NCBI GenBank assembly: GCA_902601345.1
Contig: CACKMK010000002.1
Span: forward strand, 43,571-107,570
Direction of reading: 5' to 3'
DNA from: an uncultured Candidatus Poseidoniales archaeon
GTDB taxonomy: Archaea; Thermoplasmatota; Poseidoniia; Poseidoniales; Thalassarchaeaceae
DNA: 64,000 nt
In this document: piece after piece, positions 3,854 to 7,138 of the stretch
Layout of the letters: every line of letters begins with the position of its first letter
How positions within the stretch are numbered: the first letter of the stretch is position 1
The notes under the pieces: model-generated
Databases searched by the model: none
The model's input: only the letters and a program-made list of their open reading frames with translations
What the model was told of the DNA's origin: nothing
Made by a program: the position numbers and the translations under genes

Positions 3854-3918
3854 TTTACAGTGGAAAAACACCCCAAAAACCCCCTATTTCCAGTGAACTG
3901 CTCCATTATTGACGAAAT

Positions 3919-3926
3919 GTTTATGT
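3919..3926 (+). promoter_or_regulatory. TATA-like box (GTTTATGT) with upstream purine-rich CGAAA, candidate promoter of the ncRNA
   Basis: It is the only A/T-rich element in front of the GC-rich structured block, about 25-30 nt upstream of the proposed 5' end at 3951. This matches archaeal BRE/TATA spacing from general knowledge. Confidence 0.3.
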
Positions 3927-3950: not shown

Positions 3951-4523
3951 GCCGCTCCGGGGGAGTGGTGTGAGGGCGCTTCGGCGCGACTCGCGGGCCA
4001 CAAAAACCGAGCCCCGAAACCGGGGCGGTAAAACCGAAATCCGAAAGGAAATCGGGGAATGGCTGGAGCGTCTGTGGACGCAAAGGCCGCGGCGAATAAA
4101 TCGGACGAACTGGAGGTAACGAAAGGGAGAGCGAGATAGGAGCTGAAGAGATACACATGCGTAGGGTGAAGAGAATGAACCTGGGTCATGTAGGTGGGGA
4201 ACGAGGCAGAGATAACCGGACGCAAGGAAGGGGAAGGAAACCAAGGGAAACACCGGGCAACAAGGGCGGGGAGACCCGTGGAGAAGCCAGTATCGAGACG
4301 TGAAAGGAAAAGCGGAGACGAAGTACCAGAAGCGGATGCGGCGAGTGAAAGGGAGATCTATTACGAGTCGGAAAATGACAAAGGAAGAGCATGAAGTTCC
4401 GGAGTCGTCTACCCGGGGGAACCCGGGCCTTCGGGCCCGGGGGACACCCGGACCCTGCGGAGTTAACAGGGGGGGAAGCTCCCCCATGTGCTGAACCCCC
4501 TGTTGCTCCCACCTAATATCGGC
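3951..4523 (+). ncRNA. candidate large structured non-coding RNA, class unknown
   Basis: It lies in the 705-bp gap between convergent genes, which has only stacked low-complexity ORFs on both strands. Perfect hairpins are capped by UUCG (3976-3987, 4422-4441) and GAAA (4040-4049 inside 4034-4055). There is a 9-bp helix at 4465-4473/4496-4504. The 5' and 3' ends can pair (3951-3954 with 4520-4523, 3961-3965 with 4506-4510). The core is purine-rich on the + strand. Ends are approximate. Confidence 0.6.
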
Positions 4524-4558: not shown

Positions 4559-6160
4559 TTATTCCATTGGACCAGTCATATCACCAGGTCTGACCCATTC
4601 TTCGAACTGCTGCTCATTCACCAGGTCCAGTTGGATAGCACTTTGCCTTAGAGTAAGTCCCTTCTCATGGGCATTCTTAGCGATTTTAGCTGCATTGTCG
4701 TATCCGATGTGTGGATTCAGAGCGGTAACTAGCATCAATGAGTTCTCGAGGTGCTCGGCAATCTTTGCTTCGTTTGCGCTGAGCCCGAGTATGCAATTTT
4801 CAGAGAAAGATACACAGCTATCTGAAAGCAGCCTTGTGCTATGCAGGAGATTATGGATCATCAACGGCTTGAAAACGTTCAGTTCGAAGTTCCCCTGACT
4901 TCCACCGATGGAGATAGCGACGTGGTTCCCCATTACTTGGCAACAGACCATAGTCATGGCCTCAGACTGTGTTGGATTGACCTTGCCAGGCATTATACTA
5001 GAGCCTGGTTCATTCGCGGGTAGAGAGAGTTCTCCGAAACCACATCTAGGTCCGGATCCAAGCCATCTCACATCATTGGCTATCTTCATCAATGAGGCTG
5101 AAAGTGTATTCAAAGCGCCAGAAGCTGCTACGATGGCATCGTGAGCTGCTAGTTGTGCAAACTTATTCTCTGCACTGATGAAAGGTAGGCCTGTTTTTTC
5201 TGAAATCTTACCAGCGACTATCTCTGCGAAATCGGGATGAGTATTGAGGCCGGTTCCAACTGCAGTCCCTCCTAGTGCTAGTTCGTACAAATCGTTCAGA
5301 GCCGTTTGAATTCTAATCAAGTCGGCATCCAACATCGACACGTAAGCACCAAACTCCTGTCCAAGTGTTAGCGGAACGGCATCCATGAGGTGGGTTCTGC
5401 CGATTTTGACTATGTCAGAGAACTCTTCCTCCTTCTCCGCTAAAGAATGTCGAAGTTTCAGTACTGATGGAATTAGTCGATGTTGTATTTCCTCAGCTGC
5501 AGCGATGTGCATTGCGGTTGGAAACGTATCATTACTAGACTGCGCGCGGTTTACATGATCATTAGGGTGTACCGGAGATTTACTGCCCAGCTTTCCTCCG
5601 GATATCTCAATTGCCCTATTCGCAACAACCTCGTTTGCATTCATGTTCGTCTGAGTCCCAGAGCCCGTCTGCCAAATCCTGAGGGGGAAATGGGAGTCTA
5701 GAACCCCAGAAATCACCTCTTCACATGTTTCCGTGATCAGTTTTCCAATGTCATCTTCCAGTACTCCGAGCTTGACATTTGTCTCTGCTGCTGCCTGCTT
5801 TAGGATTCCGAATGCACGAATCACAGATCTAGGCATTCTATCTTCTCCTATGTCGAAGTTGATCAGAGACCTTGCTGTCTGTGCCCCATAATATCTATCA
5901 GCAGGAACTTCTATGTCCCCCATTGTATCGGTCTCAACCCTTACTTTGAGATTGGTCTTGTTCGGTTTTCGAGACTTTTTCTCTCCAGAGTTCGGCTTGT
6001 TGATAACGGCTCCAGAAAGGGAGCTTTCAATCATCTTGGAAATAGTGGCAGATCTTCCCTCTCCTCTGCCCTTACCAACCCTAGCGTCCAATCTTCTAGC
6101 AATATCCTCAGGAATACTGACTGAAATTATTCTACGATCACCGACCCGATGTTTCGCCAT
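4559..6160 (-). CDS. fumC: class II fumarate hydratase with an N-terminal ribbon-helix-helix (CopG/NikR-like) extension
   Basis: [13 protein letters not shown] and [16 protein letters not shown] are fumarate-lyase signatures, and the TQSEA variant is FumC-type. The FumC-homologous part starts near aa 71 ([27 protein letters not shown]). Residues 1-50 read as RHH ([40 protein letters not shown]). Confidence 0.9.
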
Positions 6161-6185
6161 AATAATACTATTAATAACTTATTAA

Positions 6186-6197
6186 TAAATATATTTA
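6186..6197 (-). promoter_or_regulatory. TATA-like element in the AT-rich 51-bp spacer upstream of the long (RHH) start of fumC
   Basis: The minus strand reads TAAATATATTTAT about 30 nt upstream of ATG 6160. The spacer 6161-6211 is almost pure A/T, which would fit a leaderless or short-leader archaeal transcript. Confidence 0.35.
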
Positions 6198-6211
6198 CTA
6201 CAGTCTAATCA

Positions 6212-6679
6212 TCATACTCTCTCTACACTGATTATCTTCTGAGGTGACACCGGTCTATCTCCGGGACGAGTCTCTGTGGACTCAATCTTCCTAACTACTT
6301 CCATCCCCTTAGCAACTTCGCCGAATACAGCATGGTTTCCATCGAGCCAGGGAGTGGGTACAGTAGTAAGAAAGAACTGGGAACCCCCCGTATCTCGTCC
6401 TGCGTTTGCCATAGAGAATATCCCTGGCCTGTCGTGTTTTTTCGATAATGCAGATGTCTCACATGGTATCTTCCAGCCGGGACCTCCGGTACCGGCTCTC
6501 CCATTGTTTGCATCTCTTGAATGTGGACATCCTCCTTGGATCATGAAATCTTTGATTATTCTGTGGAAGTGTAGGCCATCATAGAAGCCGTCGTCTACTA
6601 ATTTAAGGAAGTTGTTTGTTGTCTCTGGGCATTCCTCTGTGTACAATTGAATTTCTATCTCTCCCGCACTTGTTGTCAT
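6212..6679 (-). CDS. peptidyl-prolyl cis-trans isomerase, cyclophilin type
   Basis: FHRIIKDFMIQGG, GTGGPGW and SMANAGRDTGGSQFFLT are cyclophilin motifs. The likely start is MTTSAGEIEIQLY. The ORF track extends to 6721. Confidence 0.9.
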   Translation of the reverse strand: MTTSAGEIEIQLYTEECPETTNNFLKLVDDGFYDGLHFHRIIKDFMIQGGCPHSRDANNGRAGTGGPGWKIPCETSALSKKHDRPGIFSMANAGRDTGGSQFFLTTVPTPWLDGNHAVFGEVAKGMEVVRKIESTETRPGDRPVSPQKIISVERV

Positions 6680-6739
6680 TCTTACGTATGTCATATTGTA
6701 TGAGTAGAAAAACAGGTTCAATATGGTATTGTATTGCAG

Positions 6740-7138
6740 CTATGCAACTGTTGAGCCCGGCATAGTTCCTTCTGGGGCCTCCAACAGTCTGACTGTACCA
6801 TCCGCATCTAAAGCACCCAAGACCAGGAATTGGGAAACGAAGCCCGTGGGTAGTGTCTTCTCTCCTAGATTAATAGCCGCTACTACCATCCTTCCTATCA
6901 ATTGTGAACGGGAGTAGTTTGTAATCTGAGCCGAGCTCCAAAGCCTTCCAACTATGGGTCCAAAATCAACTCTAATCTTGTAAGATGGCTTTCTCATCTC
7001 TGGGAATTCCTGGACATCATCAATTATTCCGGCCCTCATATCCACAGAAAGAAATTCTCCGATTCCGATATACTCCTTTCTCTCAAGTTTGGATGGGTGG
7101 TATGGCAGACTTTCTGAATCAATGTCGTGCTGTCCCAT
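6740..7138 (-). CDS. tRNA-binding domain protein (CsaA/EMAP-like OB fold)
   Basis: VDMRAGIIDDVQEFPEMRKPSYKIRVDFGP followed by GRMVVAAINLGEKTL follows the CsaA/Trbp111 tRNA-binding domain pattern. Confidence 0.7.
   Translation of the reverse strand: MGQHDIDSESLPYHPSKLERKEYIGIGEFLSVDMRAGIIDDVQEFPEMRKPSYKIRVDFGPIVGRLWSSAQITNYSRSQLIGRMVVAAINLGEKTLPTGFVSQFLVLGALDADGTVRLLEAPEGTMPGSTVA

Follow-up and report, generated by a model that had tools for sequence, protein, structure and literature searches.

The window analysed here is a stretch of 64,000 nt (64 kb) from contig CACKMK010000002.1 (assembly GCA_902601345.1) of an uncultured Candidatus Poseidoniales archaeon of the family Thalassarchaeaceae. 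It carries on its minus strand a complete gene for a class II fumarate hydratase (FumC) whose product has an additional N-terminal domain. The initial annotation of this DNA had read the gene as FumC fused in frame to a domain for DNA binding of the ribbon-helix-helix (RHH) type; the gene and its product are referred to here as RHH-fumC and RHH-FumC. A short intergenic region and a cyclophilin gene lie upstream of it, and a candidate structured non-coding RNA lies downstream. The coordinates of all features are collected in Table 1.

Table 1. Features at the RHH-fumC locus, in window positions
Feature	Position	Strand	Basis
RHH-fumC gene, complete (533 codons + stop)	4559..6160	-	open reading frame (ORF) list, Pfam and NCBIfam matches, full-length homologues
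Predicted ribbon-helix-helix (RHH) domain, residues 1-48	6017..6160	-	basic N-terminal arm, strand IISVSI, helix 1 (~18-33), NikR-like loop ending G35-R36-S37, helix 2 (36-48)
Variable linker, residues 49-72, includes basic KKSRKPNK; probably disordered	5945..6016	-	low conservation, high ratio of nonsynonymous to synonymous substitution rates (dN/dS), model
Class II fumarate hydratase (FumC) body, residues 73-533	4562..5944	-	TIGR00979, PDB fumarase alignments, intact motifs
Intergenic region, cyclophilin to RHH-fumC, 51 bp	6161..6211	-	AT-rich, TATA-like element
Candidate operator TTTATTAATAA-G-TTATTAATAG	6168..6189	-	two 10-bp palindromes, 6179-6188 and 6168-6177, centres 11 bp apart
Cyclophilin (Pro_isomerase) gene, upstream of RHH-fumC	6212..6721	-	ORF list
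Candidate structured non-coding RNA	body ~3951-4514	+	conservation, compensatory changes; lies in the 700-bp gap from the end of fumC to the following gene

RHH-FumC is 533 amino acids (aa) long, its start codon being the first ATG after the upstream in-frame stop. Pfam analysis placed Lyase_1 at residues 81-411 and FumaraseC_C at residues 477-530, and the NCBIfam equivalog model for class II fumarate hydratase (TIGR00979) scored 768.5 bits (cut-off 664.75), its positions 1-457 out of 458 falling on residues 73-529. Solved fumarases matched with E-values of 1e-177 to 1e-196 (best PDB match, 6n1m), and all of them aligned only from query residue 65-74 onward; residues 4-463 of E. coli FumC (1fuo) aligned to residues 73-532. 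The fumarate-lyase signature loop GSSxMPxKxN (SS-loop, residues 386-396) was intact, and an alignment of 56 homologues showed this loop, H198-P-N-D-H-V-N and S208-S-N-D-T-F-P-T to be invariant or nearly so. In a full-length AlphaFold2 (AF2) model of the monomer, the FumC fold opened with a hairpin of strands E73-78 and E81-86. Judged from sequence, residues 73-533 form a complete class II fumarase, a full-length FumC orthologue that is predicted to be catalytically intact.

Residues 1-72 (window 5945-6160) are called an extension because fumarase models and structures align only from about residue 73. They continue the reading frame without a stop and are conserved in relatives, in agreement with the in-frame extension first described; its original limits, 5951-6160, correspond to residues 1-70, and the FumC alignment itself begins at residue 73. 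Met80 or another internal codon was considered as an alternative start and rejected, as the earlier reading had already favoured: Met80 is a conserved internal FumC residue, equivalent to E. coli FumC Met11, and lies within the first beta-hairpin between E73-78 and E81-86.

The RHH domain was found to be encoded in 241 GTDB species genomes (one genome per species), and the best 80 of these loci were taken as the sample for comparison. All 80 belonged to the Poseidoniales (Marine Group II) and represented both families, Thalassarchaeaceae and Poseidonia/Poseidoniaceae. The fused ORF was intact at 519-539 aa in 78 loci, the other two being cut by contig ends. A whole-protein search gave the same picture, with 119 of the 120 listed homologues measuring 529-545 aa at 99-100% coverage and 72-97% identity and carrying the extension in frame; the lone exception (P0107) was a protein of 453 aa with 85% coverage on a 4.3-kb contig. 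The extension was thus present and unbroken in the relatives, and the fusion is not peculiar to this genome, occurring in every Poseidoniales relative examined. One locus, L048 (CAXRJJ010000018.1), bears the alphaproteobacterial label 'MAG: Yoonia sp.' (MAG, metagenome-assembled genome) and holds a typical Poseidoniales RHH-fumC with 68% identity in the RHH domain, most likely through binning contamination.

A search with the first 92 residues returned 80 protein clusters down to 50% identity, all of them fragments of at most 160 aa. The 23 fragments that were read showed either the same N-terminus running through the linker towards the FumC N-terminus or FumC N-terminal pieces. Many of these short database entries end in adapter-derived peptides or frameshifts, which identifies them as contig-end artefacts. 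P0001, P0002, P0021, P0032, P0064 and P0223 are among the many fragments that end in CLLYTSPSPRDS, LSLIHI or VSYTHLTLPTTPYV, which we take to be translated Nextera transposase adapter; this would mean untrimmed contig ends in ENA assemblies.

Alignment of the homologues revealed two conserved blocks separated by a variable segment. Every aligned N-terminus read MAKHR or a close variant, and residues 1-48 were almost invariant (MAKHRxGDRRIxSxSIPExxAxxLDxxVGKGxxxGRSATIxxMI). Residues 49-72 varied in sequence and slightly in length, and conservation restarted at VRxExDTMG. When the window gene was compared with seven close relatives by the Nei-Gojobori method, dN/dS was 0.053 for the RHH domain (codons 1-49; proportion of synonymous differences, pS, 0.24), 0.41 for the linker (pS 0.30) and 0.053 for the FumC body (pS 0.29). 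The RHH domain and the enzyme had diverged to a similar degree at synonymous sites, and the constraint therefore acts on the protein. The extension is best read as translated in this frame, under protein-level purifying selection as strong as that on the enzyme, and not as an annotation artefact. The RHH-FumC fusion is ancestral to the sampled members of the order Poseidoniales and kept in them.

RHH-FumC was also found in at least two deeper related clades (B and C), with kept synteny of cyclophilin, asparaginase and then RHH-fumC. The clade B protein begins with MAKHNVGDRRIVSVSIPEDVAQELDRWTGGGK, and that of clade C has a shorter-loop N-terminus, MPTKGRPRTHDARIVSVSFPSELLEKMEEIESIAENRSQWIVEAV. 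All five clade B contigs carried disrupted genes (two frameshifts, one deletion and a TAG in two) and were used for upstream sequences only. The TAG is the same in two independent short-read assemblies (L205:1252-1707 and L206:848-1303), where it replaces an Asp of the intact clade B homologues that were read, in the context EEVMHG-TAG-LDAHFPLRIW; frame and conservation continue beyond it, and it may reflect a nonsense mutation shared by both, a pseudogene, or a stop codon that is recoded. In L204, a deletion between two GAATTTCG repeats has removed the first FumC hairpin, and the frameshifts of the long-read contigs L081 and L203 are probably sequencing errors. An exhaustive profile search with the RHH domain over 1.84 billion representatives gave 44 matches and no obvious donor family: nearly all were fragments of the same fusion, the others being two weak stand-alone RHH proteins (P0238 and P0239).

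The fold of residues 1-48 was addressed by several comparisons. The RHH match expected by the initial annotation exists, Pfam RHH_1 being found at E <= 0.01 in 51 of 55 non-redundant relatives (best 5.9e-6), whereas the window sequence itself, at 16.9 bits (E 0.006), did not reach the gathering score of 20.5. For some relatives PF01402 matches were available precomputed, and two N-terminal fragments carry the NCBI label 'ribbon-helix-helix protein, CopG family'. When a profile of 55 domains was compared with all PDB sequences, NikR from H. pylori and from P. horikoshii ranked first, through the RHH domain, at E ~0.6, which is not significant alone; the alignment to NikR was ungapped over residues 12-51, including the unusually long inter-helix loop ending R-S. 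AF2 modelling on the domain alignment produced an N-terminal strand and helices at 18-33 and 36-48, with a predicted local distance difference test score (pLDDT) of 67. The model and the NikR alignment both matched the secondary structure, and the RHH identity, that had been assigned earlier to the extension.

The close structural neighbours of the RHH model were all DNA binders, the RHH domain of PutA (2rbf) among them. The strand shows an alternating polar/hydrophobic pattern (R9 R10 I-I-S-V-S-I), a G-x-S turn (G35-R36-S37) precedes helix 2, and the domain has the strand-helix-helix topology over ~45 residues that is expected of the RHH superfamily. Each of these lines is modest, all of them agree, and we regard the fold assignment as sound and very probably correct. 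In the full-length AF2 model, the RHH domain had a pLDDT of ~60 and showed no sign of docking onto the enzyme, and the linker (residues 49-72) had no regular secondary structure, with pLDDT <50 at residues 49-58.

RHH domains are normally sequence-specific operator binders that act on palindromic or tandem subsites as obligate, intertwined dimers, with a two-stranded ribbon placed in the major groove of the DNA, and adjacent dimers typically lie one turn apart (Arc, CopG, MetJ) or are spaced by a tetrameric core (NikR). Directly upstream of RHH-fumC we found TTTATTAATAA-G-TTATTAAT, a pair of palindromes spaced by 11 bp, beginning 29-30 nt ahead of the ATG. The two 10-bp palindromes are TTATTAATAA and TTATTAATAG, and the first occupies the position of a TATA box, -29 to -22 from the ATG. 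The region 6161-6211 had been singled out earlier as promoter-like, AT-rich and furnished with a TATA-like box upstream of the long start, and as a place to look for operator-like repeats. This description held: GC content was 0.37-0.385 (200-nt composition windows) compared with ~0.47 nearby, a TATA-like element was present, and strongly conserved repeats were located at 6168-6189. No Shine-Dalgarno-like sequence was seen in the region, and the gap from the 22-bp element to the ATG at 6160 is only 7 nt (6161-6167).

Across the 80 loci, the pattern TTTATTAATAA[CG]T[AT]ATTAA[TC] persisted although the flanks, and even the upstream gene, differed. Its 11-mer was exact in 68 loci and had one mismatch in 7, and it started 29-30 nt before the ATG in 70. 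Information content reached 1.2-2.0 bits per position over a block of ~20 bp, compared with mostly <1 bit in the flanks. A separate short conserved element, (A)CACTGC, was observed ~20-25 nt upstream of the fumC motif at loci where the cyclophilin gene is not immediately adjacent (L027, L043, L045, L060, L063, L071, L076 and others).

The possibility that the motif is a generic promoter sequence was tested by its distribution. The 64-kb window contained no other copy of the 19-mer (<=3 mismatches), the 10-mer palindrome, TATTAATA, or the 7-mers TTATTAA/TTAATAA. In 598 kb of related loci, 75 copies of the 11-mer (<=1 mismatch) lay at fumC promoters and 4 lay elsewhere, and in the same 68 loci the best 20-nt block scored 22.0 bits at the fumC promoter versus 14.1 bits at the cyclophilin promoter. 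These three results count against the generic-promoter explanation, which keeps some probability because the first palindrome lies at the TATA position. No other non-coding sequence in the neighbourhood is as well conserved as the paired-palindrome element, which is confined almost wholly to this promoter. Related sites were present in the deeper clades: clade B promoters have two TTAATAA/TTATTAA-type sites ~21 bp (about two helical turns) apart, laid out as ATTTAATAAC-N11-GTTATTAAT directly before the ATG, and the clade C promoter carries GATTTATTAATTATC. A scan of Joint Genome Institute (JGI) metagenomes with the 19-mer was uninformative on a regulon, the 120 listed rows comprising 16 fumC loci and otherwise unrelated AT-rich organisms.

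By analogy with PutA, we propose that RHH-FumC probably represses its own gene by binding over the TATA box, and we give this reading a probability of roughly 60%. The mRNA would be leaderless or nearly so, with translation from Met1; this is suggested by the fixed spacing from motif to ATG, the lack of a Shine-Dalgarno sequence and the fit to the archaeal distance between TATA box and transcription start site, -29 to -22 being the archaeal TATA position when transcription starts at or beside the ATG. A leaderless mRNA would itself enforce initiation at Met1. The first palindrome would also serve as TATA box. The class II fumarases form homotetramers whose active sites are built from three subunits, and because of this tetrameric state the enzyme would carry four RHH chains, enough for two RHH dimers and matching the two subsites. 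The two dimers would bind the subsites via their beta-ribbons and occlude TATA-binding protein (TBP), transcription factor B (TFB) and RNA polymerase, resulting in negative feedback on RHH-FumC synthesis.

It is possible that fumarate/malate occupancy modulates DNA binding and that other promoters are controlled as well. In its fullest form, this would make RHH-FumC at once sensor, regulator and enzyme of the tricarboxylic acid (TCA) cycle in a single protein, in which fumarate/malate occupancy of the tetramer determines if the two RHH dimers are placed on the tandem palindromes over the TATA box of its gene, and possibly at other carbon-metabolism genes. We put this forward tentatively and would not bet on it; if true, TCA flux would be coupled directly to transcription in a highly abundant surface-ocean archaeal group.

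Several observations weigh against autorepression. A TATA box and an AT-rich proximal promoter element would be expected at the place of the conserved element in any case, and part of its conservation needs no repressor. The block at the cyclophilin promoter is conserved too, more weakly and with variation between clades, and about six Poseidoniales loci have no second subsite. No covariation between RHH beta-strand residues and operator variants was detected, and no second site that would define a regulon was found in the 64-kb window or in the flanks of the 80 relatives.

In a rival reading, the RHH domain would be the sequence-specific transcription factor of a wider regulon (TCA or C4-dicarboxylate genes), with the fumarase body as metabolite sensor, the protein as a true trigger enzyme and autoregulation as only one output. 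Such a role would fit an architecture like that of PutA-type trigger enzymes (PMC5293562) and is compatible with an operator-like site at the protein's own promoter, and retention of the fusion across the whole order points to a weighty part in regulation. We nevertheless consider it unlikely: other copies of the motif were absent from the 64-kb window and from the 8-kb flanks of the 80 relatives, unrelated organisms of AT-rich DNA dominated the metagenome scan, which yielded no regulon, and nothing pointed to a coupling of ligand binding to an RHH domain hanging on a disordered linker.

Alternatively, the RHH domain might anchor the enzyme on DNA or chromatin, for a part in DNA damage or in supplying metabolites locally, as has been proposed for fumarase of yeast, human cells and Bacillus subtilis; the upstream element would then be simply a promoter. 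Fumarases of other organisms are known to moonlight in DNA repair, and the basic N-terminal arm together with the basic linker residues could aid non-specific DNA contact. The idea is improbable here, however, given that RHH domains, like the top structural neighbours of this one, normally bind specific operators, that paired palindromes are conserved exactly at the gene's own promoter, and that no repair genes were noted among the neighbours read (cyclophilin, an OB-fold ORF, a phosphoribosyltransferase-like ORF and DNA polymerase II large subunit).

Quite improbable, too, is a role of the RHH fold in protein-protein contact or enzyme regulation (e.g., oligomer stabilisation) without DNA binding, which would leave the motif as an ordinary strong promoter. 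The evidence for the fold is weak to moderate piece by piece, and promoter elements alone could explain some of the conservation; yet the conserved basic arm and alternating strand (R9 R10 I I S V S I) are what a ribbon that reads DNA would show, the nearest structures are without exception those of DNA-binding proteins, and the neighbouring promoter falls far behind the motif in both specificity and conservation. An annotation artefact, with Met80 or another internal codon as the true start and the 70-79 upstream codons as an untranslated leader, has the existence of an internal ATG in its favour and is effectively refuted by the dN/dS of 0.053 over codons 1-49 at normal synonymous divergence, the unbroken frame in all relatives, the position of the variable linker between two conserved blocks, the promoter-like element upstream of Met1, and the equivalence of Met80 to the internal Met11 of E. 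coli FumC, residues 73-79 forming the first FumC strand.

The neighbourhood of RHH-fumC contains further conserved elements. The cyclophilin gene has its own conserved upstream block, ATACCATATTGAAC(C/T)TG, ~20-38 nt before its start (L001-L031; window ~6700-6760, minus strand). This block does not resemble a TATA box and differs from clade to clade (TTACACTATTGGAC, CATGCTCTTGAGCC, CATCAACCTCATGAATG); it may be a further regulatory site.

On the other side of the gene, the segment ~3951-4514 on the plus strand is probably an unannotated large structured non-coding RNA, as judged from its conservation and pairing pattern. A promoter-like GAAATGTTTATG at ~3914-3925 (plus strand) lies ahead of the RNA body. 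The RNA measures ~565 nt here and up to ~800 nt in other clades, and it is convergent with RHH-fumC, its 3' end lying ~45 nt from the stop codon of fumC. No ORF in the region is credible, its GC content is 0.55-0.60 compared with ~0.47 nearby, and its plus strand is purine-rich. It directly follows fumC in 62 of the 80 Poseidoniales loci, with 85-96% nucleotide identity in ~23 loci (L001-L025). RNAalifold analysis of 19 sequences predicted 97 pairs, and compensatory double changes occurred in 48 of these; the structure showed many UUCG, GAAA and GCAA loops and G-U pairs fitting the plus strand only, and it is closed by a long-range helix. A module rich in purines, GAGAACCGGACGCAAGGAAGGGGAAGGAA, is duplicated and varies in copy number. 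Rfam 15 gave no match even at E <= 1 for the window and 8 divergent loci, and a literature search returned nothing on an RNA beside RHH-fumC.

Full-length homologues of RHH-FumC are publicly annotated as 'class II fumarate hydratase', with precomputed Pfam matches to the two fumarase domains only. Current annotation misses a fusion that is fixed across the sampled members of Poseidoniales, an uncultured but globally abundant order. A full-text search of a literature library found no description of an RHH-fumarase fusion and no TCA-cycle enzyme with a built-in DNA-binding domain. We likewise know of no such TCA-cycle enzyme, nor of a solved or characterised FumC with a DNA-binding N-terminal domain, and none of the autoregulating enzyme/DNA-binding-domain fusions known to us involves an enzyme of this cycle. 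To our knowledge, essentially no transcription factor-operator pair is known for Poseidoniales. RHH-FumC offers a testable circuit consisting of a defined protein, a 22-bp candidate site and a predicted leaderless promoter, and a natural system in which to study repressor action at an archaeal TATA box. If it is ligand-responsive, it would represent a new class of metabolic trigger enzyme.

Comparison with characterised proteins places RHH-FumC between several known systems. Its residues 73-533 are a full-length orthologue of FumC (1fuo, 6n1m), whereas the fumarases in the PDB are without an N-terminal RHH domain. NikR is its closest relative among RHH proteins by sequence and has the same loop length, although the match (E ~0.6) is not significant. 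NikR also has a tetrameric core that places two RHH dimers on two half-sites, as proposed here for RHH-FumC. It differs in its C-terminal ACT-like domain, which tetramerises and binds metal through a His/Cys nickel site and in place of which RHH-FumC has the linker and FumC, and NikR operators differ from the candidate operator. BirA, a biotin ligase with an N-terminal winged helix-turn-helix (wHTH) domain that represses its own pathway and belongs to the 'trigger enzyme' concept, is likewise an enzyme carrying its own DNA-binding domain; its DNA-binding fold and its enzyme are different, and its binding depends on a co-repressor.

Enzymes that regulate transcription through a DNA-binding domain of their own are rare, and PutA is the textbook example with an RHH domain. 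The operator of PutA, GTTGCA, is unrelated to TTATTAATAA. In trifunctional PutA, the N-terminal RHH domain represses its own promoter and regulon through operator sites (PMC5293562). PutA of E. coli and Salmonella resembles RHH-FumC in combining RHH domain and enzyme in one polypeptide. The enzymes themselves are unrelated, a flavin-dependent proline dehydrogenase/pyrroline-5-carboxylate dehydrogenase (PRODH/P5CDH) in PutA and a hydratase of the fumarate lyase superfamily in RHH-FumC. PutA switches in a redox- and membrane-dependent way, and RHH-FumC is not known to have a switch. PutA is bacterial, in contrast to the archaeal RHH-FumC, which would act on a TATA/TBP-type promoter. With these likenesses and differences, RHH-FumC conceptually extends the known PutA paradigm of an enzyme/RHH autoregulator.

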